This document shows positions 26,351 through 46,289 of a stretch of DNA of 64,000 nucleotides, in pieces (the stretch's first letter is position 1; each line of letters begins with the position of its first letter). Source of the stretch: a virus. The position numbers were made by a program, and so were the translations under genes. The DNA lies in the IMG/VR virus record IMGVR_UViG_3300031525_000001, positions 96,001 through 160,000 of that record. One strand, 5' to 3'. Below the pieces are notes generated by a model, which had not been told where the DNA came from, ran no database searches, and worked only from the letters and a program-made list of their open reading frames with translations.

Positions 26351-26668
26351 ATGGGCAAGCTTCGTGCGGCGACAACTTTCGGATTAGGGGCTCAAAAATC
26401 CGCTGATTCCAGCGTTTTCACGGTTAATCACTTCATTTCCAGCACCCCCGTACCCCCCGCCCTCAAGCAAAAGATCGCCAGCATGGGACTTGAACGGATA
26501 GCTGGCAATATATATGAATCACCGAGCACTCGGGATTTTTGGAAAGTAAAAGGAAACAGTATCATAAAGCTAGTTGGCGATGAGGTAGACAATGGAGAGT
26601 CAATCGCCGCCGCCCCTAAAAACGACCCTATGGGTTTTATGGGTGCTTTTGACGATATCGAGTTCTAA
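26351..26668 (+). CDS. Hypothetical protein with K-x-A motifs
   Basis: ATG at 26351; KSADS and KIASM motifs; first gene of the giant-ORF operon. Confidence 0.7.
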   Translation: MGKLRAATTFGLGAQKSADSSVFTVNHFISSTPVPPALKQKIASMGLERIAGNIYESPSTRDFWKVKGNSIIKLVGDEVDNGESIAAAPKNDPMGFMGAFDDIEF

Positions 26669-26669
26669 C

Positions 26670-27290
26670 ATGCTGATTTACAAGCTCACAAATCGAATCA
26701 ACGGTGGGGTCTACATCGGCAAATATGTCGGAGATGAGGCAGACGCTCGTTTTCAACAGCACGTTCGCGAAGCGAGACGGGGTGGGGATCGTTACCTATG
26801 CCGCACTATTCGCAAGTACGGCTCGGATGCCTTCAAGGTCGAAGTGATTTATCGTGCCAAGACCGCTGATGAACTCTCCAAGATGGAGACCTTTTTCATC
26901 GTTCTCCATCAAAGTCATAAAGTTGAGAACGGCTACAACATGACGCTGGGCGGTGAGGGAACTGTGGGCCGGATTATTTCGGAAAGAACAAGACAGCTTT
27001 GGAGTGAGCAGCGTAAAGGAAGACCTGTCACAGCGCAACAGTTGAAAAACCTAGCTCTTGGGCATCATCGACCGAAAAAAATAGTTGCGGTTAAACCCGC
27101 CGAAGAAGTGGAAGCCGCAATGAAAGCAGCGATGCGGGCTGCATGGACTCCCGAACGTAGGGCAGCACAAGCACAGCGGATAGCAAATCGGAATCGTCTT
27201 CGTGTTGGAAAACGTGGAGCATTATCTACGGAATGGAAGATGGCGATTTCAAATGCAAAGAAGGGGAAAGCAGCTTCGGCTGCGGCATAA
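26670..27290 (+). CDS. GIY-YIG homing endonuclease
   Basis: MLIYKLTNRINGGVYIG...RF.QH...GYNMTLGGEG. Confidence 0.9.
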   Translation: MLIYKLTNRINGGVYIGKYVGDEADARFQQHVREARRGGDRYLCRTIRKYGSDAFKVEVIYRAKTADELSKMETFFIVLHQSHKVENGYNMTLGGEGTVGRIISERTRQLWSEQRKGRPVTAQQLKNLALGHHRPKKIVAVKPAEEVEAAMKAAMRAAWTPERRAAQAQRIANRNRLRVGKRGALSTEWKMAISNAKKGKAASAAA

Positions 27291-27294
27291 ACCT

Positions 27295-29238
27295 ATGGCA
27301 GAAGAAAAGAAACCGTACACTAGCATCGTTGACGCATTCTTGGATGACCGCGAGCCCGCATGGAAGGACCTCGGCTTGAAGGACGCACAGGACTCAGGTG
27401 AAGAACAATTGGATCGTTCTCACCAGTACATCGATGATGAGTTCATGGACGACATCGCTGAGAGCGCCAGCAGGCACACCCCACTGTGGCCGGGTCGCAC
27501 TGGTTCAGCCGAGAAGAATGCTCAGCGGGATAGTCTTGAACGGGCTCGCGGTACGCATCTTGAGCGCATGGCTGCAAAGGACGGCACGGATGTATTCGAA
27601 GGTAGCAGTGTAAAAGGCTCAAGCGCCAATTGGCGTGTACAGGCAACCCAGCATCAGGAAGACTACAGTGGGAAGCTGGGCGACGATGACTCGCTGTTCG
27701 CCGAAGTAACGGAAACACTGGAATCGGCAGCCTCCACAGGCAAGGTCGAGAAGAAGAACGTGTCGGACGCACAGGTTTTGACTTACGTCCACAGCCTGCT
27801 CAATCAGGGTATGGCACCGTCAAAGATCGCCGCAAAGCTGAAGAAGCTGGCTGAGATCGAGTTGTTCAACCACCAGATGGCGACTCAATACCTGCAAGAG
27901 AACGCAGGACTGGTAGGCATGGCGTTCCTCGAACCCAACACCTACATGGACAAGAATTCCCCGACTTATGAACGAGAGAAGCACGGCAGTTCGAGCAACG
28001 GCTGCGTAGCGCAGAAGACGGCGTGGGACAAGGCCGGCATTAAGCCCCGAGCGGCATCCGTAAAGCAGATCAGCGCGTGCGAAGGATGCCAGTATTTCTC
28101 GAAGAACGGCAACGTTAAGTCCTGCGGTGTCTATCACTTACCAGTGGTAGCGACCACCAAGGAGCTTACACCCATCGTGAATAAGCTCACGGCTGGCGTG
28201 CCGAACAAGCAGAAGCGGGCAGCATTGGTTCAGATCGCCAATGGCAACGACGGCACCAAGGTCGGTTCCATGCCCATTGCTCCGAAGACAAGCTCCTCCG
28301 TTTCCCGTCACCCGAGTCTCGGCGGCGTGGAAGCGCAGGCAAAGCGTGTGGGTCGCGTGATCGCGACTGATTTCGATTCTTCGCACATTGCTGCGTTGCA
28401 TGAGAAGGGTCACTCACTGGCGGTTATCGCTCGTGCGGCTGAAAAGCGGTACGGTGCGTTTGCGGCGGGCAAGGCGGTACGTGAGTTCGTAGGCAGCTTG
28501 CGGCCGAACGTGAACGGACAGATCGTTCTGGCAAAGGCTGATGCGGAGTTCCTCGCAAAGGCCGGTATGCATAACCAGAATTTTGTGGCGGGTGCGAAGT
28601 GTGCATCCTGTGCCACACACTCGGCAGTGGTACAGAAACACAAGGTGACGGCGAACGCTAACTATGCCTCCCGTGTTCCACACGCAGGGTTCCACGAGAG
28701 CAACCCCGATCAGGTACGTCACGCACACCGTGCGGCTGCACCTGAACTTGATGCCAGCGTCATCGAGCGGTATCACAAGAAGGGTCACTCGATGGAGAAG
28801 ATTTACAAGCAGGCGGCAGCGAAGTTCGGCACCGCTCAGGCAAGCAAGGCAGTGAAAGAGTTCATCGCCAGCCTGAAGAAGAAGCCGATCAAGGTTGCGC
28901 TATCGCAGATCGACTGCACGTTCCTCAAGAACAAGCTTGCCGATCACAACCCAATTATCGGGGCACACAAGTGCGGCTCTTGCACGTATCGCAAGGGGAT
29001 GCACTGCGGTCTCACTGGCGGAACTCTCTTGAGCTTCCCCGGTATGGACAAAACGGCGTCCAACCACAAGGTCGGGGAGGGTGCGCCAGAGGATGGACGT
29101 ACAATTCTTGCTGAGTTTGACTTGATGCCGAATAGTGGGCGTCCGGGCGACACGAAGATGGCCGACATCGATATGAATCCTCCCGCACGTCAAGACGTGC
29201 AGATAGGTAGCTCGTTTGAGCTAGGAGACATAGAGTAA
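27295..29238 (+). CDS. Large Cys-rich protein with internal domain repeats (putative virion/head protein)
   Basis: Duplicated H.KGHS(L/M)..I...A..(R/K)(Y/F)G...A.KAV(R/K)EF..SL domain, each copy followed by KCxSC; CEGC..CGVY cluster. Confidence 0.8.
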   Translation: MAEEKKPYTSIVDAFLDDREPAWKDLGLKDAQDSGEEQLDRSHQYIDDEFMDDIAESASRHTPLWPGRTGSAEKNAQRDSLERARGTHLERMAAKDGTDVFEGSSVKGSSANWRVQATQHQEDYSGKLGDDDSLFAEVTETLESAASTGKVEKKNVSDAQVLTYVHSLLNQGMAPSKIAAKLKKLAEIELFNHQMATQYLQENAGLVGMAFLEPNTYMDKNSPTYEREKHGSSSNGCVAQKTAWDKAGIKPRAASVKQISACEGCQYFSKNGNVKSCGVYHLPVVATTKELTPIVNKLTAGVPNKQKRAALVQIANGNDGTKVGSMPIAPKTSSSVSRHPSLGGVEAQAKRVGRVIATDFDSSHIAALHEKGHSLAVIARAAEKRYGAFAAGKAVREFVGSLRPNVNGQIVLAKADAEFLAKAGMHNQNFVAGAKCASCATHSAVVQKHKVTANANYASRVPHAGFHESNPDQVRHAHRAAAPELDASVIERYHKKGHSMEKIYKQAAAKFGTAQASKAVKEFIASLKKKPIKVALSQIDCTFLKNKLADHNPIIGAHKCGSCTYRKGMHCGLTGGTLLSFPGMDKTASNHKVGEGAPEDGRTILAEFDLMPNSGRPGDTKMADIDMNPPARQDVQIGSSFELGDIE

Positions 29239-29780
29239 TGAGTGAAAACATTGAGCGTGCAGAACTGGTAGTTGATTTAGAGGGAAAGTACAACTCGGCG
29301 GCAGAAGACAAGAAACCGGGCAAGCGTGTCGAAAGTTCCAAGCTGACGGAGATTCGGACAAAGATTGAAGACCCGAATGTAAGTCAGGCGGAACTCAGCA
29401 AACTCATTGCCCTCGAAATGGCGGCGATTCTGGATGGCATGAACGAGCATCTGGATAAACCGAATTCGGGTATTAAAGGGATGGACGCTAACATCGCCAT
29501 CAAGAGTCTCAGCGAGCAACTGAAGGGCGTTCGTGAACTCGGTCGTCAGATCATTGAGATGGACAACCAAGCGAAGCGTGACTTCATTAACTTCGACGGC
29601 GAGAAGTTCCAGTTTGTTGCAAGCCAGTGGATGCAGATGGGCGTTGCAGCCCTCCGTGCCATGGGCTGGGATGAACACACGGTTACCAGCTACGTCAAGC
29701 AGTTCCGTAGCCAGATCGAAATGAACGAACTCCGCATCCGCAAGGAAGCGGAAAACATCGGCACAAACAAACAGAAGTAA
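29238..29780 (+). CDS. Helical hypothetical protein
   Basis: 180 aa, TAATG-coupled, coiled-coil character. Confidence 0.75.
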   Translation: MSENIERAELVVDLEGKYNSAAEDKKPGKRVESSKLTEIRTKIEDPNVSQAELSKLIALEMAAILDGMNEHLDKPNSGIKGMDANIAIKSLSEQLKGVRELGRQIIEMDNQAKRDFINFDGEKFQFVASQWMQMGVAALRAMGWDEHTVTSYVKQFRSQIEMNELRIRKEAENIGTNKQK

Positions 29781-29801: not shown

Positions 29802-30260
29802 GTGGGCACCACTGAGCAAGCTAAAGAACGTCGAGATTCCCGCCGAGCCGCTGGATTATGTGGTAAGTGCTCCAATCCAGCATTGCTCGGTAAAAGCCTG
29901 TGTGAGCTGCATCGGCAGCAAGACCGTAAGATAAACAAACGGTTTAGGGTCAATCAAAAACAGCGTGTGATCGCTGGCTATGGCGGAAAATGCCAGTGCG
30001 AAGGTGGGTGTGATGAATCGAGATTTGAGTTTTTGACGATAGATCATGTCAACAACGACGGTGCGGAACACCGTAGAAACCTCGGAAGTGGCGCAATCGG
30101 ACCCATGTTGTATAAGTACATTATCGATAACAATTTTCCCGAGGAGTATAGACTACTCTGCTGGAATTGCAATTGCGCTAAGGGACACTATGGTGAGTGT
30201 CCTCACGTAAATGAAAAGAATGCTGTCGCTGCGATGTCAGTTTCGGCAGGAGGAAAGTAA
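29802..30260 (+). CDS. HNH endonuclease
   Basis: YGGKCQC..C...FLTIDHVNNDG...LLCWNCNCAKG. Confidence 0.85.
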   Translation: MGTTEQAKERRDSRRAAGLCGKCSNPALLGKSLCELHRQQDRKINKRFRVNQKQRVIAGYGGKCQCEGGCDESRFEFLTIDHVNNDGAEHRRNLGSGAIGPMLYKYIIDNNFPEEYRLLCWNCNCAKGHYGECPHVNEKNAVAAMSVSAGGK

Positions 30261-30261
30261 C

Positions 30262-33200
30262 ATGGCACAAAGTGGAAACACCGTAGCTCTTAAATCGTTC
30301 CAGTCCTTCATGGTCAATGACGGATTGCTGAGCAAAACTGTCGAAGCTATCAAAGCTGGTGAGAAGGAAGCTCGCTCCACGGGTAATGTGCAGAGTTTCG
30401 AAGTTTTCTACAAGGGCTTTCGTCAGAACATTGCCATCGGTCGCATCTACATCGTCCCCCCATCCGTTGCCGACAAGAAGGGGCAAGACTTCCCGACCGC
30501 CCTGCTCTATGGTTGCCTTGTCCGCACCTTTGGTGGTGAGGAAATCGGCGACATGATCTCCCACAAAATCGGTGATACCGAATGGGATGAGTATTCTCAG
30601 GCGTCCTACGCATCGATCAAGAAAGAACTCTTCGGCACCGAAAACGACAAGTTCGCCGCCCTCATTTTGTTTGCCCCCAACTGGGTCAATAAGCGTGAGT
30701 ACATCGGCTTCCAGTTCCCGAAGGATGACAACGAGCTTGCGAACCTGACTCGTCACTTAGTCTTCAGTTCGTACTTCGACCCCCGTCTGTCCTCGGCATT
30801 CGATGCCCTGATGACCGATGTGGAGACCTCGAAGTTCGATGTCACGGACATCACGCCGAAGATGAACTTCCCCGCCTTGGCCGAGAATCCGCTGAAGGAA
30901 TTCCCACTGCTCACCAAGGAGGGTTCAAAGAAGAAAGCCCGCCTTGGGCTAACCATCAAGACCGCCGAAGAAGTCACCAAGGCCGTACTAGAGCCGCAGG
31001 AGATGGACGTGTTCGAATCTTTGGACACGGCTCTCCGCAACAGCCTCTTGCCAAACGATTCCAAGGGCGTTGAGGATGCTTCCGAGGGTAAGGCTCCGAC
31101 AAAGGGTGAAATGGTTCCACGTCTCTCATCCAAGAAGGGTTCCGCCAAGGTTGCTCATGGCTACATCGCGTTCTACGGCGGCAAGCGCATTGAGATTCAA
31201 GCCGACTCCCTCTATGGGGCGAAGTTGAAAGCCATCGAGATGCTGAAGGTTCCGAAGTCCAAACAGGGCTTGCTCGCGGTCGAGCTTGCCGAAAAGGACG
31301 GAGAACAGGTCACCACAACAATCACGTCGTCCGCCACTGCGGTATTCGAGACCCCGATTACAAACGTTGGTCCGGGTACTGAAGCCCATGACGAAGCCAA
31401 CCAGCGCACCGAAGGCTACAAGGATGAGAAGGACACGCCAAAGGTTGTCATCAACAGCGCACCGATTGGTATCGCTCTCGACGAGACTGGTGTACCCCGC
31501 CGTCCAGAGGAAGAGCGTAAGTCCGCCGCAAGCAGTTACTACCCTGCTTCCGCTGGTAAGGCTCAAACTGAAAACGCTGCGGTCGTGGAGAAACACGGTT
31601 ATACCCAATTTAATTCCAAGCCAGACGGAACTTCCTTTTGGAAGAGTCCTATCGGAACTACCGCTGTTCTATACCCAAACGGAAGCTGGATGCACACAGG
31701 CGGTAAGGGAGATGGGGCAAAGGCCCTTAGCGAGCTTCTCATAAGCTACCACCACGAGAGAGTGCCAAAGGTCAGCAAGTCAGCAGCGTATGGCGACCGT
31801 CGCGATTTTCGGAAGATCGATATCTTCGTTAGCGGCAAGTATGTCGCAAGCACGACATGGGCTAGTTCCATAAAGGAAGCAATCCAAAAATACGAGGAAA
31901 AGAACCCGGGCTCGTGGGCTGGTGAAGTTAAGGCTCAATTTGATAAGAAAGGCTCGGCTGATAAAACTGCCGTAGACTACAGCGGCAATTACCCCGAGGC
32001 AATCGGCGGTGGTTGGAATAAAGCGACGGCAGATGATCTGTCGAGCGGCTATTCCAAGCAGGTCGGCAACGGTTTGATGGATGAGACCCCCGACAAAGTA
32101 AAGGAACATTTGAAGAAAAATGTCAGTCAAGCCCGTCAGGGTCAGGATGCCCTGAAGGATCACAATGCATCATTTGACGCCGCCAAGTGGGGCGGACTGG
32201 GTGTGAAGCAGGCTTCCTCCCTGTGGGTAGGTTCCGCCAAGAAGGTTGCAGCCAATCTCGATGACTTCACTAGCCAGTACATTATAACCGCTCTATGGTC
32301 TTCGAATGATGAATCTGACCCCAGCGGCGGTGAGCCGTTGGATTCAAACTACGATATCCTCGATCTCGCACCGTCCTGCTTGCAGGCAATGACCGAAGAT
32401 TGCGCGGGCTTCCAAGCGGAGAATCAAGAGCTTCTGGCTGCGGCATCCGAACAAGATGGTCAGGACGCCGAGCGTCAAGGTCATGATTTCTGGCTCACCC
32501 GCTGCGGTCATGGTGCGGGCTACTGGGATGGCGATTATCCGACAACGGGCGATGGTTTGACTGAAGCCGCCAAGAAATGGGGTAGCGTTGATCTGTACGT
32601 CGGTGACGACGACATGATCTATCAGATGGGGGCAGAAGACCCGAGTTCGCGTGGTTACGGACAGAAGGGCGGGCCTGCAAAGGCTGGCTCGAAGATGGCT
32701 TCCAAGAAGACCGCCTCGCAAAATGATGCATCATACATCGCCAGCTTGATCGGCGGCGGGGTGCATAGTGAAGATTATGACGCTCGTTCGCAGCACTCCA
32801 GAACGGCGGCACAGAAGCGCGAAGACGAGATGGCTCGCAAGTATTCCTCTCAGCGTAAAAAGTTTGCCGACGTTCCTCAGGACATCGAAGACATTTGGTC
32901 TGAGACGATGGAAGACATGGGGCCAGCACCCGAGATCAGACTCCCGGGCGAGAGTGAGGACAACGAAAAGTCCACCACAGGGGAGCACGAGATCGAGGCT
33001 CCAGAGATGGGCGCGGATTCGAGAAGCGACGTTCCTGAGCAGGTCAAGGGCGATCAGGAAGAGCCGACCGTAAAGGTTGAAGAGGCTCTTGAGAACGACA
33101 CCACCAAGTCCGAAGAGGACGAGCCCAGCACGGGCGATGGTGGAGCGTCGGCGGACAGCGGTGAAACAAAGTCCGAAAAGAAGTCCGAGGGTGGTTCCCA

Positions 33201-36045
33201 GTCCGAATGGGCGAAGAACCGCAGCAAGGGTAAGTCCGAGAAGAAGGACGAGTCCGAAGAGTCTGAGGAAGAGCCGAAGGAAGAGGAGTCCAAAACGGCT
33301 GCTCGGCCCGGTGCCCGTCCTGCCAGACAGCGTGTCCGTTGCGATCAGTGCGAGATGTTGAGCATCAATGGCACGGCGACTCACGAGACAGGCTGCCCAA
33401 ACCAGAATTCCCGCTGGGATGCTGACCGACAGGATTGGGTAAAGCAGCGTCGTTGCGGCGAATGCGGCATGGACGTTGACGCCGATGATCCGTGTTGTTC
33501 TGCGGAACCTGACTTCGACAACGGTTACGACGAAAACGATGAGCATTTTGGTGGGCTCGATGCTATCCTCGCTGACGACACCGATGCAGTAATGGAGCAG
33601 GCGGAAGAAGCCGCAACAGCAGCCCCCGCTGTGTTCTATGAGTGCGGAGCCTGCGGCGGCGTGCACCCGTCCTTGGAGACTTCCGAAAGGCTCGGTCTCG
33701 GTTGGAACGGTGATTGTCGTGATGAGGTTGGTCACTTCGAAGACAGCGACGTTCCTTACGGAGACAACACTCAGTTCGTCACCTTGGAAGAGCAGATGGC
33801 TCCAGACTTCGATGACGCGATTCTGGCGTCTAAGACTGCGGACTATGCCGAGGGCGACCTTGAAACTTACTTCGACGAAGGAAAGACGGCGGATTACGCC
33901 GAGGGCGATCTCGAAACCTACTTCGATGAGGGGAAGACGGCAGACTACGCCGAAGATGATTTTGCATCTTACTTCGGAGAGGAAAAATCGGCGGGACGTT
34001 CCACCACACCGAAGTACGTCATTCGTATTCCGGGTTCGACCGATGCCGCATGGAACGTGAGCGGTTACGGACAACAGCGTGGTGCGGGCCAGCCAAACCA
34101 AGCGAACCTCGCACGGTACATGGAAGCTCTCTTGAAGAGCATGGAACCGGGCGGGCACAACGAGCATTTGGTGGGTCATTTCGACCCATCCGAAGCTGCG
34201 GTTTATCGCAACGACGGCACCTACAAGAACCCGTTGGCTACATGGTCGAAGGGTGAAGCGAAGCAGGGTGCGGATGTCTCGGGCGATTTCTCGGAAGCGC
34301 ATTCCGAGGTTGACAGCCCAGACACCGTGGATCAGGACATCAAGCAGCCGACCGAATCGGTAGGCGAAGCTGGTAAGAGAAAGAACGCTGATGTGGCGGA
34401 AGAAACCAAGGAAGAGCGGGCGAAACGTCTGGAAGATCAGCGTCAGCGCGATGCTCGTGAACTGACACGTCGCAAGGCGGCTGACATCTCGGGGGACATC
34501 TCTGAGGCTAAGTCGAACACGGAAAGCCCTGACGGGGTGGACGCCGACATTAAGCAGCCTACGGTTTCGGTTCCCGAAGCGGCACGCAAGAACGCTAAGG
34601 TGGGATTCACGTTCAATGGACAGCACCGTGAAGCTGCCTTTAGCGATCTCACACAAGCGGGGAAGTTCATAGCGGTAGCCTCGGCCAAATTTGGAAAATT
34701 GGCTAGTGACTGGACGATAACCGCAGCCGATGACGATGATGCGGCGGAAGATCAGTCCGTTGATTCGAAGAAGCCCGATGACGCTGAAGCTGACGAACCA
34801 GCCGAAGCTGCAAAGCCTGCGGATTCGAAGAAGCCTGATGAGACGAAGGGCAAGAACAAGCCCGCCGTTACTCCTCCCGCGAAGGCTGAAGCACCAGCGG
34901 CAGCACCAGCAGCACCCGCAGCGGCGGCGGTTCCAGCGGCGGCACCAGCCGTAGCAGCGCCAGCAGATGGTGCAGGTGGTAATGGAACCTCGGAAACTTC
35001 TGGTAACGAAACATCGACTGAAACTGGCGGTTCAAGTCCGGGTGGTGCATCAACTGGCGGCGTAGGTAGCGGCATGGGTGGTGCAGGTACAGGCGGGGCT
35101 GGCACAGGCGGTGCCGCGACTAGCACGGGAACAGGCGGGGCTGGCACGGGTGGAACTGTGAGCATTGCACCAACGAGCACAAACTCAGCGGGTGGTGACG
35201 AAGGCGGCGGTGAAGACGGCAGCGTACAAGCTGCTGGTCAACCTGCTGGTGGGGCACAACCTAAAACCCCGACCATCATCATCTACAACGGCGGCACGGG
35301 CGGTGCATCTACCGTCGATACGGATAGCGGTTCGGGTCCGGGCGGCGATGGGCCGGGTTCTGATGGAACTGGCGGCACGGGCGAAGGCTCTGGCGGCGGT
35401 GGAGGCGGCGGGGGTGGACGTGGAACTCCGCGCAACCCTGAACAGGCAGCGGATGCCGTTTCTCCGGGAGTTGACAGCGACAATCGTCAACAAGGTGACT
35501 TGGCAGAACCACAGGGCAACCAGTCAAAGGGTAAGCCTTTGGCAACGAAGCCTGAAGGACAAGACGATCAGTTAAAGGGCAATGATAAGCCCGAGCTACG
35601 CGGTGACGCGCCTGTGGAGCCTCAGGAGCCACAGCCTCCACACGAAGACGCAGCAGACGACACGAAAGAAGCTGCCGCAGGAATGCCAGCCGAAGTCGGG
35701 GAATTCCCGTATGTCGAGACGCTGGTAGGTATGGGTTGGAGCGACGAGGGCGAACCGGGGCATTTCATGCTCGGCGATAGCCGTGTCGAAGTCCTGACGT
35801 ACACCGATGGCTACGAAGTATACGTAGACGGCGAACTGTACGAATCAGGCGACAACGTGGATGAACTCCAGAACACACTGGAACTCGTTGCCGAACTCGG
35901 TGTGGATGCGTTGAATGCACATCAGGCCTCAGATGACAAAACAGCATGTGCGGGCTACGGTGACGAAGAAGATGAAGAGCGTCCAATCGATCTCGGTATC
36001 GGCGATCTAGCGGACTTGGTTGTGGAGAAGGAAGATGCCCATTAA
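30262..36045 (+). CDS. Giant mosaic protein (about 1927 aa); candidate polyprotein
   Basis: ATG at 30262 after AGGAGG. It has a globular N-terminus, then many modules flanked by K-x-A, acidic and Gly/Thr low-complexity tracts, and internal repeats. Confidence 0.9.
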   Translation: MAQSGNTVALKSFQSFMVNDGLLSKTVEAIKAGEKEARSTGNVQSFEVFYKGFRQNIAIGRIYIVPPSVADKKGQDFPTALLYGCLVRTFGGEEIGDMISHKIGDTEWDEYSQASYASIKKELFGTENDKFAALILFAPNWVNKREYIGFQFPKDDNELANLTRHLVFSSYFDPRLSSAFDALMTDVETSKFDVTDITPKMNFPALAENPLKEFPLLTKEGSKKKARLGLTIKTAEEVTKAVLEPQEMDVFESLDTALRNSLLPNDSKGVEDASEGKAPTKGEMVPRLSSKKGSAKVAHGYIAFYGGKRIEIQADSLYGAKLKAIEMLKVPKSKQGLLAVELAEKDGEQVTTTITSSATAVFETPITNVGPGTEAHDEANQRTEGYKDEKDTPKVVINSAPIGIALDETGVPRRPEEERKSAASSYYPASAGKAQTENAAVVEKHGYTQFNSKPDGTSFWKSPIGTTAVLYPNGSWMHTGGKGDGAKALSELLISYHHERVPKVSKSAAYGDRRDFRKIDIFVSGKYVASTTWASSIKEAIQKYEEKNPGSWAGEVKAQFDKKGSADKTAVDYSGNYPEAIGGGWNKATADDLSSGYSKQVGNGLMDETPDKVKEHLKKNVSQARQGQDALKDHNASFDAAKWGGLGVKQASSLWVGSAKKVAANLDDFTSQYIITALWSSNDESDPSGGEPLDSNYDILDLAPSCLQAMTEDCAGFQAENQELLAAASEQDGQDAERQGHDFWLTRCGHGAGYWDGDYPTTGDGLTEAAKKWGSVDLYVGDDDMIYQMGAEDPSSRGYGQKGGPAKAGSKMASKKTASQNDASYIASLIGGGVHSEDYDARSQHSRTAAQKREDEMARKYSSQRKKFADVPQDIEDIWSETMEDMGPAPEIRLPGESEDNEKSTTGEHEIEAPEMGADSRSDVPEQVKGDQEEPTVKVEEALENDTTKSEEDEPSTGDGGASADSGETKSEKKSEGGSQSEWAKNRSKGKSEKKDESEESEEEPKEEESKTAARPGARPARQRVRCDQCEMLSINGTATHETGCPNQNSRWDADRQDWVKQRRCGECGMDVDADDPCCSAEPDFDNGYDENDEHFGGLDAILADDTDAVMEQAEEAATAAPAVFYECGACGGVHPSLETSERLGLGWNGDCRDEVGHFEDSDVPYGDNTQFVTLEEQMAPDFDDAILASKTADYAEGDLETYFDEGKTADYAEGDLETYFDEGKTADYAEDDFASYFGEEKSAGRSTTPKYVIRIPGSTDAAWNVSGYGQQRGAGQPNQANLARYMEALLKSMEPGGHNEHLVGHFDPSEAAVYRNDGTYKNPLATWSKGEAKQGADVSGDFSEAHSEVDSPDTVDQDIKQPTESVGEAGKRKNADVAEETKEERAKRLEDQRQRDARELTRRKAADISGDISEAKSNTESPDGVDADIKQPTVSVPEAARKNAKVGFTFNGQHREAAFSDLTQAGKFIAVASAKFGKLASDWTITAADDDDAAEDQSVDSKKPDDAEADEPAEAAKPADSKKPDETKGKNKPAVTPPAKAEAPAAAPAAPAAAAVPAAAPAVAAPADGAGGNGTSETSGNETSTETGGSSPGGASTGGVGSGMGGAGTGGAGTGGAATSTGTGGAGTGGTVSIAPTSTNSAGGDEGGGEDGSVQAAGQPAGGAQPKTPTIIIYNGGTGGASTVDTDSGSGPGGDGPGSDGTGGTGEGSGGGGGGGGGRGTPRNPEQAADAVSPGVDSDNRQQGDLAEPQGNQSKGKPLATKPEGQDDQLKGNDKPELRGDAPVEPQEPQPPHEDAADDTKEAAAGMPAEVGEFPYVETLVGMGWSDEGEPGHFMLGDSRVEVLTYTDGYEVYVDGELYESGDNVDELQNTLELVAELGVDALNAHQASDDKTACAGYGDEEDEERPIDLGIGDLADLVVEKEDAH
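33832..33984 (+). repeat. 3 x 51-nt (17-aa) coding tandem repeat KTADYAEGDLETYFDEG
   Basis: Units at 33832, 33883 and 33934. Units 1 and 2 are identical in protein but differ at 9 synonymous sites. Confidence 0.95.
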
Positions 36046-39000
36046 GATCGATGACTTGCACGCCGCTGCCGCTCGTATGGCGGCGGACATCATGCACAGC
36101 GACAATGATCTGTCTCAGAAGCTCGAAACGGCGACCCCCGCAGCGGCGGAAGCTGGACCGAGCCACGATGAGTTGGTTGAGAATTCCCACAGCGAAAGCG
36201 GAGTTGGCGTAATCGACGGTGAAATCCGTCCGCCTGAACGTCAGAACGTCTCTGCCGTCAAGGATGCCATTGAAGCTCAAGCCGAGATGGAAATCGGTAA
36301 GACCATCGGAGAAAAAGAAGAAGAGATGGAGGCTCGTGGCGACGGTCCTTACGGTGACAAAGAAGTCAAGGACACCGCAGGCGCGACCGAAGTTACCGCC
36401 AAGCCGGGAACTCAAATCATCATCAACGTTGCGGGCAAGAAACAGGCTGCCCGAGAGTTCGTTGTAAAGCACACGACCGTAAACGACTCCCGTGGTCCGA
36501 AGACAGGCTGGTGGATTTTCGAAGATGGTCGGCCTTCGGGTATGCGTGCTACGCAAGAGGAAGCAGTGCAAGCTGCCGAGGCTACCGCACAACTCCGCAT
36601 AGTTAATGGGCAGGTCGCCCCAGTTCGTGTTGAAGCAGGTCAGAAAGAGCAACCCATCGGTGGTGAGAAGCAGCACCCAAGGGAAAACACCTCAGCCAAC
36701 GGTATGTTCGGCGGTACGAACTTGTCGGCAACCCCGAATTTTGAGAAGCACTCCGAAGAGGGTGCCCCCGATCCTGACACGGTTGCCCGTGTTCGTGGTC
36801 AGTACACATCCGGCATGGGGCGTAAATCCTGCATGGAGCACTTCAAGATCACGGAACAGCAGCTTGATGACATCCTGAGCGGGAAGTATGGCAAGGGAAA
36901 GTTCGCCTCGTATCACGAAGTTAAAGCAGCCTTCCTCAAGAAGGGTAGCTTCCTGACGATTGATGAGGTCAAGAAAGCAGGACAGGAATACCTGCACATG
37001 ATCCGCACCGCTGCGATTAGCGTGGCACAAGGTCAGGACGAGCAAGGGTTCCACATGCTGCTGAGCATGAACGGGCGTGAGTACGTCCTTCGTGGGGCGG
37101 ATGCGGACAGTTTCCGTAAAGAGTATGCCGCGATTCCAAAGCCCGAAGCGGCTGTCAACAAGCTCGTTGAAAAGTATTTGTGGAAAATGCAGCCGTACCA
37201 GAAACAGACCATTCAGCACCCACCGTCCGAGACGAAGCAGGACCCGAACAGTCAGGCACTTCGCCGCCAGCGGTCGGAAGGGTTGGCGGATGCGGATGCT
37301 TATTGGGCAGGCAAGGAAAAGCAGCCGAACGATTACAAGCGGTACATGACGCAGCACGCTTCCGCGAAGATCGCCGCAACATCATACGCGGAGTACCAGA
37401 AGTTGGTACAGGAGCGCAACCAGATTATCTCTCAGAATCGTAGCCGCCAGATGAAGGGTCAACCACCCGTGCCAGTGCCACCGAAGCCAGAGGTGCCGAT
37501 GGTTCCAGTGGCGTATGCTGCGGATGGGACGTATGAGGGTCGGCTACAGGACCCAGCGGATTGCCCACCGGGTTGCACCGTAAAGTGGGAGCCTTCCAAG
37601 GGAGCCAGTATGATGACCTTGGCTAAGCTGGCGGCTGATTATTTCGGCTACGATGATTGGATCACAGGGCACACCGCTCTGATGATTAACAATGATTCGG
37701 CGGGACTTACGACGCTGCACAATTTGGTCCGCAGTGCCCTGAAGAACAAGAAGACTCCGAAGATGTTGGCGGGTCAGCTTGCGAAGTTCTTCAAGAAGTT
37801 CGGCGACCAGAGCAAGAAGTTCTACGCGGAGAACGCCGACAATGCTCGGGGCGAGCGTGGTAAGCACGAGCGTGAGCAACTCGAAGGCGTGGTTAAAGCG
37901 CCAAGCGGCGACAAGGCCCGTGATTTCGTCGATAACCTGACGAACATGTGGTACGACGCGGGTGGGCAGAGTGACTGGGAGCAGCCAGCGGGTGAAGTTA
38001 ACTGGGAGGAGATCGCCTCTGCGGAGATGGAGTCCGAGCGTGCGGAGAACCCAGACAAGTACCCGAAGACAAACAAGGAAGACGACAAATTCATGGAAGG
38101 TGTGGGGATGAAGATGGAATCACTCAGGACAGCAACGGCAGTATTAGCAAGAGTCGCCGCTATGAGCGTGGGTGACAAACATCAGCTTCGCATCGCAATC
38201 GACTCTCTCAAAATGAACCCCGCTATGCTGGGCGTCATGGGGGGACCTGACAAAGAACAAGCTTTGGAAATCTTAGCTAGGCACGGTTTACGCTGGGACG
38301 AAGCAGGAGGTAAGGCTGTGAAAGCAAACGATAAGAAGGCCGCTGCTGGTTGCGACTGGCAGACCGAATACGGAATGGGTGCTGGCGATGCCCGCTGTGG
38401 ACAGCCGACCACGGGTAATTCTCCGTGGTGTGCCGAACACATTCAGGAAGCCAAAGACAACTACCCGCAGCACGCCCTCCCGACCAAGAATGGTGGGGAA
38501 GGTGCGGCTAAGACCCCAGAAGAGATCGAAAAGGAAGCAGGCTTCAATTTCTTCTTCCCGGGTCAGGTACTTCGTGAGGTTGCCCCCGAGATGCAACATG
38601 AACTCGTGGACTATCCAAACCAGACCAACACCCCAATGCAGTATCCTGACATCGTTGGTGACGGGGAAGAGGTTCCAGAAGAGATGGCTCTTGCAGCCGC
38701 TCTCGAAGGCGCTATGGATACAACCATCATCGCTTACGTCAGCACCAGCCCCGCCGCTGCCGCAGGTATCGGTCGTGACGGCAAGACTGAAGTGCTCGAA
38801 GGGGCCCCGCTCCGCAAGGAAAACGACATCCGTGGTATGATGTTCACGGACGAGTTTTACGGTCAGCAAGAGGGCGTCCCGGGTGCGGCATTCGCAAGCA
38901 CCAAGGCCGCAGGTGGATTCGCCCGTCCGGGTTCGGCGTTCAAGTTCCTGAAGAGTCTCAAGCTGGGCAAGACGGCAGGTGCCGACGAAGCCAAGCAGTT

Positions 39001-39367
39001 CTCGATCTTCCTTCAGTACGTTTGCGGTGAGATCGCGGCTACTCTCGTGGCGTTGTTCAAGGTCACCTATCGTCCGATGCTGAACCAAGTTCCGGGCAAG
39101 GGTGAGATTCAACTGGCTCAGGTCGAACAGCCGCAAGGTCTGTCGAGCTTCAACATCTACAATCAGGCGAGCCGTGTGAAGTACCTGATGAACAAGCTCA
39201 CCGACAGCGAGATCAAGGACGCCATCAATAGCTCCTCGGCTCAGGGTGCGGTGTGGCACGAAGGTGAAGAGGGCGGCTACGTGTACGAAGTTTTCGTCCG
39301 TATCGACGACATCGACACTGAGAGCCTGATCGCGACGTATAGCTTTATTTGCGGCACGAAGGAATAA
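36035..39367 (+). CDS. Giant mosaic protein (about 1110 aa); candidate polyprotein
   Basis: Overlaps the upstream stop. It has K-x-A-delimited modules and a globular C-terminal domain. Confidence 0.9.
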   Translation: MPIKIDDLHAAAARMAADIMHSDNDLSQKLETATPAAAEAGPSHDELVENSHSESGVGVIDGEIRPPERQNVSAVKDAIEAQAEMEIGKTIGEKEEEMEARGDGPYGDKEVKDTAGATEVTAKPGTQIIINVAGKKQAAREFVVKHTTVNDSRGPKTGWWIFEDGRPSGMRATQEEAVQAAEATAQLRIVNGQVAPVRVEAGQKEQPIGGEKQHPRENTSANGMFGGTNLSATPNFEKHSEEGAPDPDTVARVRGQYTSGMGRKSCMEHFKITEQQLDDILSGKYGKGKFASYHEVKAAFLKKGSFLTIDEVKKAGQEYLHMIRTAAISVAQGQDEQGFHMLLSMNGREYVLRGADADSFRKEYAAIPKPEAAVNKLVEKYLWKMQPYQKQTIQHPPSETKQDPNSQALRRQRSEGLADADAYWAGKEKQPNDYKRYMTQHASAKIAATSYAEYQKLVQERNQIISQNRSRQMKGQPPVPVPPKPEVPMVPVAYAADGTYEGRLQDPADCPPGCTVKWEPSKGASMMTLAKLAADYFGYDDWITGHTALMINNDSAGLTTLHNLVRSALKNKKTPKMLAGQLAKFFKKFGDQSKKFYAENADNARGERGKHEREQLEGVVKAPSGDKARDFVDNLTNMWYDAGGQSDWEQPAGEVNWEEIASAEMESERAENPDKYPKTNKEDDKFMEGVGMKMESLRTATAVLARVAAMSVGDKHQLRIAIDSLKMNPAMLGVMGGPDKEQALEILARHGLRWDEAGGKAVKANDKKAAAGCDWQTEYGMGAGDARCGQPTTGNSPWCAEHIQEAKDNYPQHALPTKNGGEGAAKTPEEIEKEAGFNFFFPGQVLREVAPEMQHELVDYPNQTNTPMQYPDIVGDGEEVPEEMALAAALEGAMDTTIIAYVSTSPAAAAGIGRDGKTEVLEGAPLRKENDIRGMMFTDEFYGQQEGVPGAAFASTKAAGGFARPGSAFKFLKSLKLGKTAGADEAKQFSIFLQYVCGEIAATLVALFKVTYRPMLNQVPGKGEIQLAQVEQPQGLSSFNIYNQASRVKYLMNKLTDSEIKDAINSSSAQGAVWHEGEEGGYVYEVFVRIDDIDTESLIATYSFICGTKE

Positions 39368-39417: not shown

Positions 39418-39942
39418 ATGAGTAGCCTACCGCAGTATAAAGGTAAAACTCGTCAGCAGTACATGAGTGAGTGGCATAACAAGTATCGTGCATATTGGAG
39501 CACGCACGATGCGTATGTTGAAACCAAGTCCAAAATTTGCGTGTACTGTGAAAAGGAAAAGCCGAGCGTTGCTTTTTCCAAGGCAAACACGAACAAGGAT
39601 GGGTTACAGGCATACTGTATCGACTGTCTCAAGCAGTGGCACATCGATGATCCAACACGTCAAATGCTGCTCAACGCCCGTGCCCGAGCCCGTCGTTTGG
39701 GAATTGAATTCGCTCTTGATGCAAAGGATATAGTAATTCCGAAAGTTTGCCCCGTTTTGGGTATCCCGCTTGTCGTGAGATCAAAGGGGAAAAACAACTC
39801 TCCGAGTCTGGATAGGAAGGATAACTCTAAGGGATACACCTCAGATAACATTCGAGTGATCTCGTGGCGGGCAAATGATATCAAGGGGAACGCCACTGTC
39901 GCTGAGCTAGAAAAAGTGTTAGAATACATGAAGGAAGCATGA
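39418..39942 (+). CDS. HNH endonuclease with N-terminal Zn ribbon
   Basis: CVYCEKEK...YCIDC; CPVLGIPL...PSLDRKDNSKGYTSDNIRVISWRANDIKG. Confidence 0.85.
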   Translation: MSSLPQYKGKTRQQYMSEWHNKYRAYWSTHDAYVETKSKICVYCEKEKPSVAFSKANTNKDGLQAYCIDCLKQWHIDDPTRQMLLNARARARRLGIEFALDAKDIVIPKVCPVLGIPLVVRSKGKNNSPSLDRKDNSKGYTSDNIRVISWRANDIKGNATVAELEKVLEYMKEA

Positions 39943-40995: not shown

Positions 40996-43128
40996 ATGGC
41001 TGACAAGAAAGTCAAAAGTACAACTTGGACAAAGCTCGCAGACAATCTCCTGCCTGACGCGACAAAGAAGATCAATGCCATTGACTTCATTGAAGGCCCG
41101 GGTGGGACAGGTCTCGTTCTGCGTCCTGTTCAGCGTGTTCTTGTCAAAGCACTTTTCGCCGTTCCCTTTGACTACCGCCCCAAGTGGGCAGACTCCATCG
41201 ACAACTGGGGAATGGTGGAGATGTGGAATCCCTTCCGTGATGAGCTACTCCGCACGGTTACGGAAGAAGAGTATCTCCACATCGTTCACGAAGAGGGTCG
41301 CTGCAACGTCGGAGACTGGCGGGACATACCACAAAGAGGATTCAACGAAGGCGTCATCTTCTGCGGTCGTCGTGGTGGTAAGTCCGAAGTCGTCGCCGCC
41401 ATCGCCGCCTACAAACTCTACCTCACTTTGTGCATCAACTCGCCGCAGAAATTCTTCGGCTTGGCTGAGGGTTCCAAGATCGACTTCACCTTTCTTGCAC
41501 AGGACGAAACAGGTGCGGGTCGATTGTTCCAAAAGCTTCAGGCCGCTGTCACCCGTGCCACGTGGTTCCACACCTACATCAAGGACAGCAACGCCAAGAA
41601 CCTGACGTTTACTTGCGAAGCTGATCGTCACCATAAGGTCGATGCCAAGCCGTCTATTCAAGTCGTATCGCTGCCCTGCACCACGAACGCCGTCCGTGGT
41701 CCTTCGTCCCTCTTCCTCGCCCTTGACGAGTTTGCCCACTTCCGTTCCGAAGTAGGCTCCACGTCTGAAGACATGTACGTAGCCGCTACGCCTGCCGCTG
41801 GCGACTTCCACCACGAAGAAATCACCGCCCCTCCCGTGCTCCATGAAGCCGACTTTCACCAAGCTGGCGATTTTAAGCACGCGGAACCAGTTGGTACAGA
41901 AGGCAAGGTTGAAGTTCAGGACTCACTGATTCTGAGCATCTCGTCGCCACTGAAGAAAGTCGGTATGATGTACGATCTCTACCGCATGGCGATGGAGGAC
42001 GGCATCAACGAGGACAACCCGACGTTCGCCCTCAGTTGCTCATCGGCGGAAATGAACCCCAAGCTCAAGGCCGGGTTCTTGCGTGATAAGGCTCGTAAAA
42101 ACCCCCTCACGTTTAAGGCTGAGTACGGCGGACAATTCTTGGAATCTACGGAATCGTTCGTTCGATCCATCGACATCATGACCTGCACGGATGTCACCGC
42201 GTGGGATGTCAAAACCGAACCCACATTCGGCGTTCTTGCGCCCGCACCGGGAGCAATCGTTCGTCAAAACTGCGTGCGATTCAACGGAGATCAGGTGGGC
42301 TACAACTACTTCTGGGGTCTTGATCTTGGCGGCGTGAACGTCACCGATCCTGATAACAGCCGACCCGATGGTTGCGCGTTGGCGATTGGACATCTTGAGG
42401 TTCGTCAATCGACTAATCCGACGCCCGGGTTGACGCATGGTTTTCATTTGGTGTTCGACTACATCGACCGCATGATCGCGGGAGAACTTTTCGAAGGTCC
42501 CGGCGTCACCGTCTCGACGCCTGAGGGTATGAAATACACGGATTTTCAACTCCTACCCGTGAAGGACATTCTGCTCTGGTTGAAGGAGATGAACAAAATC
42601 CTCCCATGCTACAAAGGCTCAACCGATCAACACGCAGGTCGTCAGCTTATCACCTTGCTGGAACAGAATGAAATCAACAACATGGAGTTGGTGAACCTCA
42701 CACCTGCCATCAACTCGGAAATGGCGTATGCGTTGCGCTCGTTCATCAACGACCACACCGCCAACTTTCCGTATGTGCCCAAGTTCATCCATGAAATCAA
42801 AATGGTTGAGACCGACGTGGTTGCCAAATACCGTATCCGCGTCCATGCTCCTCTGGAAAAGGGAGCCCACGACGACATGGTAGATGCGGTCATGCTCGTC
42901 GCTATGCAGGTTCAGACGTGGTTGATAGACGAGGGTCACCTCAAGATGGACCCCACGGGGCAGAGCCTCATCATGCAGCGTCAGCAAGCACTTCCGAAGA
43001 GATCGATCCTCAACATAGACGCCATGAGTATGAGCGACTTAAAGGCGAGTGAACGGGCGTACCAGATGAGCAAGTTCAAGTTTGGCGGCGGCAGCCACAG
43101 GGTTGCTAGAGGCCGACGAGGACGTTAG
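40996..43128 (+). CDS. terL: Terminase large subunit
   Basis: Walker A GRRGGKS, Walker B LALDEFAH, motif ILSISSP, RNase H-like nuclease with WGLDLG and HDDMVDA; 710 aa. Confidence 0.92.
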   Translation: MADKKVKSTTWTKLADNLLPDATKKINAIDFIEGPGGTGLVLRPVQRVLVKALFAVPFDYRPKWADSIDNWGMVEMWNPFRDELLRTVTEEEYLHIVHEEGRCNVGDWRDIPQRGFNEGVIFCGRRGGKSEVVAAIAAYKLYLTLCINSPQKFFGLAEGSKIDFTFLAQDETGAGRLFQKLQAAVTRATWFHTYIKDSNAKNLTFTCEADRHHKVDAKPSIQVVSLPCTTNAVRGPSSLFLALDEFAHFRSEVGSTSEDMYVAATPAAGDFHHEEITAPPVLHEADFHQAGDFKHAEPVGTEGKVEVQDSLILSISSPLKKVGMMYDLYRMAMEDGINEDNPTFALSCSSAEMNPKLKAGFLRDKARKNPLTFKAEYGGQFLESTESFVRSIDIMTCTDVTAWDVKTEPTFGVLAPAPGAIVRQNCVRFNGDQVGYNYFWGLDLGGVNVTDPDNSRPDGCALAIGHLEVRQSTNPTPGLTHGFHLVFDYIDRMIAGELFEGPGVTVSTPEGMKYTDFQLLPVKDILLWLKEMNKILPCYKGSTDQHAGRQLITLLEQNEINNMELVNLTPAINSEMAYALRSFINDHTANFPYVPKFIHEIKMVETDVVAKYRIRVHAPLEKGAHDDMVDAVMLVAMQVQTWLIDEGHLKMDPTGQSLIMQRQQALPKRSILNIDAMSMSDLKASERAYQMSKFKFGGGSHRVARGRRGR

Positions 43129-45290: not shown

Positions 45291-45499
45291 TGGGAGAATC
45301 AGTGATTGAGACCGTAACAATTCCTAAGTTTCGTTTAGCCGCGATCATCAAGAAGTTCGGCAAACCCGTGGAGGCTGGAGACGGTTACATCTTGTCGGTG
45401 CCACTCGAAGACTGCATTGGGGTGAGTAGCCTTGAAGTCATTCCCGCCGATGGTGCTGACGGTTTGGCAATCTCGTATGTTGCTCACGAGAGGGCGTAA
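45290..45499 (+). CDS. Small hypothetical protein
   Basis: 69 aa, TAATG-coupled. Confidence 0.6.
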   Translation: MGESVIETVTIPKFRLAAIIKKFGKPVEAGDGYILSVPLEDCIGVSSLEVIPADGADGLAISYVAHERA

Positions 45500-45545
45500 G
45501 GGAACAAATCCAAAGACTTTGGGTTCTAATGATTATGGGGGCCAC

Positions 45546-46289
45546 ATGTTCGAAGACAGCCTATTAGAGTCTGGCGGTAAGCTGAAGGATAAGCGTGGGC
45601 GGTACACATCGGTCGCATTCCTGATCGAAGCGGTGCTCCTCGGCATAGCTCTGTTGATTCCCCTGTACTACACCGAAGAACTGCCCAAGGCTCAACTCTT
45701 TACGTTCTTGGTTGCCCCTCCCCCACCCTTGCCGCCGCCCCCTCCAGCGGCCGCAGTTGTGCATGTGCAGCACGTTGTCCAGACTGACATCGTGAACGGG
45801 CAGCTACGCACGCCCACCCGTATCCCGAAGAAGATTCAGCAGATCGTAGAGGATACCGCCCCGCCGCCAGTCAATACTGTTCAAGGCGTGATTGGCGGCG
45901 TCCCGGGTGGTGTCCCGGGAGGGGTGCCAAACGGCGTGATCGGCTCAATCATCAGCGCGGTCCCGCAGTCGGTGCCGCAACTCGCACCACCCAAGGTCGT
46001 GAGGGTATCATCGGGCGTGTCACAAGGAATGTTGATCCGTAAGGTGACGCCGAACTACCCCCCGTTGGCACGTCAGGCCCGCATACAGGGCTCCGTGAAC
46101 CTCGAAGCTGTGATCTCTACGGATGGCACCATCGAAAACCTGAAGGTCACCAGCGGGCACCCGATGCTCGTCCCCGCCGCGATAGATGCCGTTAAGCAGT
46201 GGCGCTACAAGCCGTACTTGCTCAATGGTTCGCCTGTCGAAGTGCAAACAACCATTCAGGTGAACTTTACCTTGGCGGGTGGTTCCTAA
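45546..46289 (+). CDS. tonB: TonB family energy transducer (Acidobacteria-style)
   Basis: MFEDSLLES, TM anchor, poly-Pro linker, GGVPGGVPGG, TonB_C domain YPPLARQARIQGSVNLEAVISTDG..V.SGHPMLVPAAIDAVKQWRYKP. Confidence 0.9.
   Translation: MFEDSLLESGGKLKDKRGRYTSVAFLIEAVLLGIALLIPLYYTEELPKAQLFTFLVAPPPPLPPPPPAAAVVHVQHVVQTDIVNGQLRTPTRIPKKIQQIVEDTAPPPVNTVQGVIGGVPGGVPGGVPNGVIGSIISAVPQSVPQLAPPKVVRVSSGVSQGMLIRKVTPNYPPLARQARIQGSVNLEAVISTDGTIENLKVTSGHPMLVPAAIDAVKQWRYKPYLLNGSPVEVQTTIQVNFTLAGGS

Follow-up and report, generated by a model that had tools for sequence, protein, structure and literature searches.

A 1,927-residue protein of a huge soil phage is a mosaic of small phage proteins and a candidate head-packaged polyprotein

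The 64,000-nucleotide stretch analyzed here (the window) covers positions 96,001 to 160,000 of IMGVR_UViG_3300031525_000001, a 186-kb virus record from an uncultured huge soil phage. The subject of the analysis is P0001, an open reading frame (ORF) of 1,927 amino acids (aa) spanning window positions 30262-36045. A first-pass annotation had viewed this ORF as a string of captured small phage genes, recruited in frame into a packaged carrier. The ORF was confirmed: its translation is free of stops, and its start is supported by the orthologs. A second in-frame ATG is found upstream, at 30211, and was rejected as start, because in 31 orthologs the protein starts at the position corresponding to 30262, with the motif M-x-x-SGN (MAQSGN in P0001). 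No Pfam family was detected at E<=1 on the whole protein, nor on 10 separate segments, and Pfam recognized nothing in five relatives. A 14 kb region compared by megablast to cultured phages gave no match, and no paralogs of the modules or linkers described below were found elsewhere in the 186-kb genome. A single relative is known from culture, gp350 of Tunturi 5, a jumbo myovirus of Acidobacteriota with Tunturiibacter psychrotolerans X4BP1 as host (PP885688; PMC11924767). P0001 features an N-terminal domain (N-domain), nine variable modules (M1 to M9), three linker motifs (C1 to C3), and spacers, arranged as follows.

30262..36045, + strand: whole P0001 gene, 1,927 aa; putative modular head-cargo polyprotein.
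30262..31056, + strand: N-domain, aa 1-265; hallmark of the family, candidate carrier or head-targeting domain.
31156..31320, + strand: module M1, aa 299-353; directly after K296-V-A298; corresponds to the free-standing phage family phrog_19202 (~60 aa).
31342..31521, + strand: linker C1, aa 361-420 (ETPxTNVGPG...PIGIAxDETGVPRR); ends at K420-S-A422; in ~48/85 homologs.
31552..31776, + strand: module M2, aa 431-505; corresponds to P0118, a complete stand-alone ORF of 77 aa.
31786..31956, + strand: module M3, aa 509-565 (AYGDRRDF...); directly after K506-S-A508; corresponds to a free-standing family of 54-65 aa.
32251..32631, + strand: module M4, aa 664-790; after K661-V-A663; helical domain, corresponds to phrog_1915.
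32719..33081, + strand: linker C2, aa 820-940 (...RKKFA, then DVPxDIxDIWxExTEDxGPAP...); in ~70/85 homologs, and in Tunturi 5 gp350.
33322..33507, + strand: module M5, aa 1021-1082; double Cys-cluster, zinc-ribbon-like; corresponds to stand-alone ORFs of 66 and 85 aa.
33619..33741, + strand: module M6, aa 1120-1160 (YECGACGG...DCRD); no preceding K-x-A.
33826..33993, + strand: three 17-aa tandem repeats (KTA-DYAEGDLETYFDEG), one K-T-A site each, followed by K1242-S-A1244.
33994..34260, + strand: module M7, aa 1245-1333 (GRSTTPKYVIRIPG...); preceded by K-x-[AG] in 9/9 homologs.
34261..34596, + strand: element C3 in two copies, aa 1337-1376 and 1408-1445 (consensus ADxSGDxSEAxSxxxSPDxVDxDIKQPTxSV); K-x-[AG] before each copy.
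34597..34704, + strand: module M8, aa 1446-1481 (VGFTFNGQHREA...); weak match to phrog_19167.
34729..35661, + strand: low-complexity spacer, aa 1490-1800, rich in Pro/Ala, Gly and acidic residues; not conserved.
35674..35946, + strand: module M9, aa 1805-1895; after K1802-E-A1804.
35947..36042, + strand: conserved acidic C-terminal tail (CAGYGDEEDEERPIDLGIGDLADLV); after K1893-T-A1895.

The segments singled out in the first-pass annotation all lie where it had placed them (HGYIAF at aa 299, RKIDIF at aa 517, LDDFTSQYII at aa 666, RCDQCEM at aa 1026, YECGACGG at aa 1126, KYVIRIPG at aa 1251). No mutual homology among modules was detected by hhalign, and P0001 is therefore not a repeat protein. 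On the same ground, a common mini-fold, duplicated to give M1, M3 and M8, or to give M2 and M9, was rejected.

P0001 is a mosaic. Five of the nine variable modules, M1 to M5, align end to end with complete small ORFs of 54-154 aa starting with Met, at about 45-68% identity over the full length. An exhaustive phmmer search with aa 296-570 as query gave 358 matches at E<=0.001, and the best 150 were mapped. Among these 150, M1 has 82 matches, 46 of which are Met-start proteins of <=100 aa (median 63 aa), M3 has 53, 33 of them <=100 aa, M2 matches include the 77-aa protein P0118, and the cluster representatives of M1 and M3 are mostly small ORFs. M1 matches the phrog_19202 profile over positions 16-60 of 61 (E 1.1e-8). 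M5 corresponds to P0107 (66 aa; 67% identity over residues 2-63) and P0108 (85 aa). The genes of P0107, P0108, P0116 and P0118 are internal to their contigs, flanked by in-frame stops at both sides, and reside in rows of small ORFs. Boundaries match to the residue: P0118 ends with ...LVPKV-stop where P0001 reads ...RVPKV-SKSA, and the 59-aa protein P0143 (M-EYGDRRNF...FDKRGQS-stop) parallels A-AYGDRRDF...FDKKGSA. Given the end-to-end alignments of M2 and M3, aa 431-565 are therefore two whole genes linked by S-K-S-A alone. A tblastn search of cultured phages with aa 280-660, and another with aa 1010-1493, found nothing at E<=0.01; relatives of M1, M2, M3 and M5 are therefore known only from metagenomes, or at the profile level.

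M4 has a wider distribution. It matches the phrog_1915 profile over positions 6-139 of 141 (E 3.7e-26), and is found in ~130 cultured phages infecting Klebsiella, Caulobacter, Erwinia, Acinetobacter, and other hosts, where it is annotated as a separate hypothetical gene, as the 127-aa XCO36156 of Klebsiella phage KP2025. In the Caulobacter giant phages M4 is located in the terminal repeats. Stand-alone metagenomic M4 proteins (113-154 aa) align from residue 1-6 through the end. The AlphaFold2 (AF2) model of M4 is helical, with a predicted local distance difference test score (pLDDT) of 85; it matches no fold, and the sequence no entry, in PDB, and in BFVD the model resembles only uncharacterized phage proteins of 116-147 aa. 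No stand-alone form was found for M6, in a word-index search with aa 1014-1490 or by tblastn against cultured phages. The same is true of M7 and M9 in searches of limited reach: for M7 the IMG/VR scan returned known giants only and the Atlas gave no usable match, for M9 the scans of IMG/VR and of metagenomes yielded multi-module proteins and nothing else. M8 has the weak phrog_19167 match and nothing else.

The family was assembled by a word-indexed protein search, which retrieved 70 relatives of 1,060-2,691 aa, and an alignment-based scan of IMG/VR, which contributed a further 31 loci, on contigs of 13-463 kb. Removal of duplicates left 85 distinct homologs, 624-2,691 aa long, in huge soil phages, the family thus numbering at least 85. 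Their BLAST matches were mapped onto P0001 to obtain a presence profile. The N-domain is conserved in 84/85 homologs, and C1 (~48), C2 (~70) and C3 (41-46) in many. Module counts vary: M1 ~29, M2 2-3, M3 4-5, M4 22, M5 23-30, M6 7, M7 9, M8 7-21, and M9 12; the low-complexity region at aa 1490-1800 is present in 0-3. Homologs are not collinear, as modules are gained and lost around the conserved N-domain, and some change position or ORF. M9 lies close to the N-domain in other homologs, and directly behind it in locus L024; in five phages M8 is part of the following giant ORF, and M7 lies in a separate 1,048-aa ORF where the family gene is split. An M9 preceded by K-K-T-A was also observed at L049 2302-3773, in a different, unrelated multi-module protein lacking the family N-domain. 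In contrast to the modules, the order of the neighbours is fixed: 678-aa ORF, 180-aa ORF, giant ORF, 1,115-aa ORF and large terminase follow each other in 31 loci, wherever the fetched stretch reaches. The loci therefore share a single orthologous gene, whose place among the structural genes is fixed and whose interior is remodelled. In five complete related genomes (300-463 kb), a search with whole P0001 found the orthologous giant ORFs alone, and no free copies of modules. The view of the gene as a string of small phage genes is accordingly supported, for five modules and for module turnover.

Small ORFs may also derive from the giant gene. Polyproteins might break up, leaving free-standing genes behind, and in loci L027 and L030 the family gene is indeed split into ORFs of 624 and 1,048 aa; since the opposite case is seen in Tunturi 5, where the gene is fused with its downstream neighbour, both fission and fusion occur. 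M4, though, is free in about 130 cultured phages of many hosts, while giants of this family are restricted to a single clade of huge soil phages, and most cluster representatives of M1 and M3 are small ORFs. Capture is the probable direction, and break-up as the origin of the small ORFs is judged very unlikely.

Some homologs (P0026, P0036, P0042, P0065, P0070) host as modules the Xre/MbcA/ParS antitoxin toxin-binding domain, the DnaJ CXXCXGXG zinc finger, or DUF7249. The Pfam domains found in homologs, Xre_MbcA_ParS_C included, are small and non-enzymatic. In three complete relatives (300-463 kb), the major capsid protein (genome 87552-88667, outside the window; L050-L053) is 94-95% identical, the N-domain of the giant just 54-73%; in a fourth, values are 84% and 50%, respectively. 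The cargo gene therefore evolves far faster than the shell.

The gene lies within a conserved structural and packaging block, and the N-domain and C1-C3 are better conserved than the modules. Both features would suit a protein which is mainly a scaffold, core or inner-body component, chopped and largely expelled at maturation, the modules being passengers with no role in the next host. Head proteins of giant phages do carry long propeptides, cut at multiple sites and mostly cleared from the head (PMC10052503). The full-length similarity of five modules to free-standing proteins is at odds with this explanation, and argues for selection on the modules themselves; nor has the antitoxin-type, toxin-binding Xre_MbcA_ParS_C domain of the homologs any obvious structural use. 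A mere scaffold is judged quite unlikely.

Modules are joined by a recurrent motif. P0001 contains 18 K-x-A-[ASGD] tetrapeptides, against 6.2 +/- 2.4 in 1,000 shuffled sequences (z = 5.0), none of which reaches 18. Over 86 family members, 1,108 occurrences were counted versus 348 expected (median z 4.6). Permuted motifs of matched composition occur 370-487 times in the family, K-x-A-[ASGD] being 2.3-3 times commoner; the motif is therefore oriented, and does not merely mirror richness in K and A. The first residue of M1, M3 and M4 is the one right after the Ala of K-x-A, whereas M5 starts 6, and M2 8, residues later. The idea that modules start just after K-x-A, put forward in the first-pass annotation, thus holds for HGYIAF (K296-V-A298), for the module containing RKIDIF, which begins at A509 (K506-S-A508), for LDDFTSQYII (K661-V-A663) and KYVIRIPG (K1242-S-A1244), and loosely for RCDQCEM, found 12 residues past K1011-T-A1013; it fails for YECGACGG, which has no K-x-A nearby. 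In orthologs K-x-A marks the junction of M1 in 7/7, of M4 in 22/22, and of C2 in 53/55 cases, and is kept despite a differing upstream neighbour; similarly, the sequences upstream of the K-x-[AG] that precedes M7 in its nine homologs differ. If the K-T-A sites within the DYAEGDLETYFDEG repeats (33826-33993) were cut, three near-identical acidic 17-mers would be freed.

In the 186-kb genome, the excess of K-x-A-[ASGD] is limited to five large ORFs: P0001, both syntenic neighbours, an upstream 1,968-aa ORF, and a 732-aa ORF. The latter (genome 81183-83381, outside the window; L004 6183-8381) comes directly after the head maturation protease gene; its 13 K-x-A-[ASGD] sites are accompanied by clusters of K-x-A rich in Cys, and by spacers rich in Pro/Ala, and it likely encodes a scaffold or core protein. 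The head maturation protease (genome 80227-81183; phrog_18299, E 6e-15) has K-x-A near both ends, and the N-terminus of the major capsid protein (phrog_2522) reads MANLSRTQQQTAMLGQLL-KTA-GGRQ-KLA-AS, an arrangement kept in four complete related genomes. The motif is thus common to the capsid protein, the head protease and the protein encoded next to it, and the giant gene is fixed between structural genes and terminase. A cytoplasmic polyprotein, never packaged and cut by another peptidase, is hardly credible in the face of these two observations.

M3 is found in three forms. It is free (M-x-YGDKRD), or lies behind K-x-A in the P0001 clade, or behind a tag and site of the T4 type. Where M3 is embedded in another protein, the site just ahead of it is K-x-A or [LIV]-x-E (LNE, VNE, VCE, IKE), and carriers of the second type are themselves chains of modules, with [LIV]-x-E between modules. 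P0160 (L055 313-918) and P0138 (L056 5255-6316) are small multi-module proteins of T4-like phages; in P0138 the linker YSESGLNE is repeated ahead of each module. P0160 starts with MKTFKEFIKE, a decapeptide resembling a capsid targeting sequence (CTS), followed by AYGDKRD, and its gene is directly upstream of a Peptidase_S77 (T4 gp21 family) gene; a tblastn search with P0160 found no match in cultured phages. In T4, the CTS corresponds to the first 10 residues of IPIII, processing is determined by positions 8 and 10, and the cut is made after Glu (PMC9026906). The three forms of M3 are the strongest indirect evidence that a head-protease site may mark the junctions, and that modules may be head cargo.

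P0001 could be a polyvalent protein packaged and injected whole, with modules acting in cis and K-x-A being a linker preference or a binding motif. Among polyvalent proteins, N4 virion RNA polymerase and ArdC are delivered unprocessed (PMC5512222), and K-x-A occurs also inside folded parts of P0001. An uncut chain, however, would not account for the orientation of the motif, its location exactly at the residue which replaces the Met of free-standing genes, its re-creation beside M7 in nine different upstream contexts, its presence at the N-terminus of the capsid protein and at both ends of the protease, or the gp21-type site carried by M3 in T4-like phages. Delivery in one piece is unlikely.

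These features are best accommodated if P0001 is loaded into the head as a polyprotein that the prohead protease cleaves, yielding small proteins to be injected; this reading is assigned a probability of about 0.6. N-domain and C1-C3 would be a fixed backbone, into which unrelated small proteins were fused in frame; several modules would be whole small phage genes, with the start Met swapped for the last residue of the cutting site. The chain would be loaded into the phage head and, as the head matures, be cleaved by the prohead protease of the phage itself, behind the Ala of K-x-A when A, S, G or D follows. Some 15-25 pieces would be released, several near-identical to free-standing small gene products of other phages, and ejected with the DNA, to act at once in the new host, according to the model of T4 internal proteins. 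Proteins that in other phages are synthesized only once infection has begun are thus probably carried ready-made in the head of this phage and injected. For the cargo, a part in counter-defence or takeover is plausible.

Several points weigh against this reading. Packaging and cleavage, as ejection and any anti-host role, are inferred from sequence, and the packaged-carrier and host-takeover parts of the first-pass annotation are conjectural. Some K-x-A sites reside inside the N-domain and inside modules, as K538-E-A in M3, and therefore not all can be cut if modules are to survive; M6 lacks a preceding K-x-A. The head protease is identified by one PHROG family only, with no Pfam or PDB sequence match, and no published prohead protease with a K-x-A site was found in the literature. 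As to the fold of the N-domain, its profile matched nothing among PDB sequences, the AF2 model is poor (pLDDT 55), the best PDB match by VIA-align, YkuJ (Z 8.2), is in the range usual for unmatched models and not decisive, and ESM Atlas scores are below 0.9. Its role as carrier or head-targeting domain is a guess.

A broader claim, that huge soil phages have a true injected-cargo polyprotein system, with an undescribed K-x-A prohead protease and effectors movable between "express after entry" and "pre-pack and inject", is tentative, and given slightly less than an even chance. If it is true, the exchange of a Met for the local protease site, K-x-A here and [LIV]-x-E in T4-like phages, would move an effector from one mode to the other, and junction motifs would reveal from sequence which dark small phage proteins arrive at time zero. 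Most small phage genes have no known function, and several such families appear to have been recruited whole into a putatively head-loaded chain, which argues that they act as soon as infection begins, and helps to focus the search for what they do, counter-defence being one example. A head-maturation protease site not described before in phages is also suggested. By a simple rule, seen with two protease systems, the P1 residue of the local cutting site takes the place of the start Met; if the rule holds, it could serve to predict packaged cargo in metagenomic phages. The chain may further point to a scheme, found in nature, by which foreign proteins could be loaded into large capsids, and the cultured relative Tunturi 5 makes the idea testable.

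The genes which make with P0001 the conserved block are listed below.

27202..29238, + strand: upstream partner, 678 aa; K-x-A-rich (7 vs 2.3, z 3.2); homolog of Tunturi 5 gp348.
29238..29780, + strand: upstream partner, 180 aa; homolog of Tunturi 5 gp349.
36020..39367, + strand: downstream giant, 1,115 aa; K-x-A-rich (11 vs 3.2, z 4.9).
40996..43128, + strand: large terminase; closes the block.

Homing endonuclease genes (one GIY-YIG, two HNH/endonuclease VII-like) are interspersed with structural genes at 26592-27290, 29802-30260 and 39418-39942, and their presence varies among the 31 related loci. Opposite to the conserved coding frame of the giant gene, an antisense open frame of 641 aa (32731-34656, - strand) probably arises because the coding strand is G+C-rich and of low complexity. 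Farther downstream the window encodes a phage protein with a TonB C-terminal domain (45432-46289; E 1e-21), and a 536-aa protein (48428-50038), probably a fibre or depolymerase, with an ice-binding-like domain and a K1-lyase C-terminal domain.

Gp350 and the N-domain of P0001 are 39.5% identical, the C2 motif is common to both, and gp350 is similarly enriched in K-x-A (12 vs 2.8), as is gp348. Gp350 (L001 12001-15243) differs in being shorter (1,080 aa), in hosting other modules, and in being fused to the C-terminal domain of the 36020-39367 gene product, the C-terminal ~270 aa of which are 45% identical to part of gp350. The two giant genes of the window are one gene in Tunturi 5, and gene fission or fusion therefore took place. 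Gp350 is annotated as "DarB-like antirestriction protein"; Pfam detected no DarB methylase or helicase domain in it, and no match in P0001 to the features of P1 DarB (N6-adenine methyltransferase, DExH helicase).

In herpesviruses, the maturation sites of assemblin have the form (V/L/I)-x-A followed by S, the cut being made after Ala with a small residue next. Assemblin, which acts in capsid maturation, belongs broadly to one lineage with the prohead proteases of phages. The resemblance to K-x-A is at the motif level; P3 is hydrophobic in assemblin sites and Lys in P0001.

Processing of internal and ejection proteins by head proteases is established for T4, phiKZ and SPN3US (PMC9026906, PMC10052503). 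T4 IPI-III and Alt, equipped with a capsid targeting sequence and cleaved by gp21 at L/I-x-E, are head-loaded, clipped and injected cargo, and the set varies among related phages (PMC9026906). M3 of P0001 is found in a T4-like phage behind a CTS-like decapeptide. T4 internal proteins have one small tag each and a Glu-specific site; P0001, in contrast, would carry many cargos behind a 265-aa domain, with an Ala-ending motif, and lacks the N-terminal tag of ~10 residues ending with L/I-x-E featured by P0160. PhiKZ and SPN3US are huge phages too, with many head-internal proteins; their ejection and inner-body proteins have long N-terminal parts with several cleavage motifs, and the protease (gp175/gp245, S/A-x-E) processes itself (PMC10052503, PMC9026906). 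Their N-terminal propeptides are cut off and discarded, whereas the predicted P0001 pieces look like the payload itself. No sequence similarity was found between P0001 and phiKZ or SPN3US proteins.

Polyvalent proteins, described in 2017 by Iyer, Burroughs, Anand, de Souza and Aravind, are multi-domain, virion-delivered, and built from solo versions, and their processing by built-in zincin-like peptidases has been proposed (PMC5512222). P0001 is alike in many respects: unrelated domains are many per polypeptide (nine variable modules in P0001), the gene lies among virion and packaging genes, orthologs vary in domain content, and domains are found also solo in related elements, as M1-M5. No hallmark domain of polyvalent proteins (MuF, zincin-like metallopeptidase, ART, DarB helicase/methylase, ParB, PBECR) was detected by Pfam in P0001 and five relatives. 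P0001 modules are tiny (55-130 aa) and seemingly non-enzymatic, and, in place of a built-in metallopeptidase, the prohead protease is predicted to cut at junctions marked by a recurrent motif. Neither a module chain of this kind nor a K-x-A site was found described in the literature. The general idea of polyvalent, virion-delivered proteins is already published (PMC5512222); P0001 would unite this make-up with the processing of internal proteins by a head protease. Distinctive traits of P0001, at the sequence level, are Pfam-dark, apparently non-enzymatic modules corresponding to whole small genes, a repeated Ala-ending junction motif, and a dedicated, conserved backbone.

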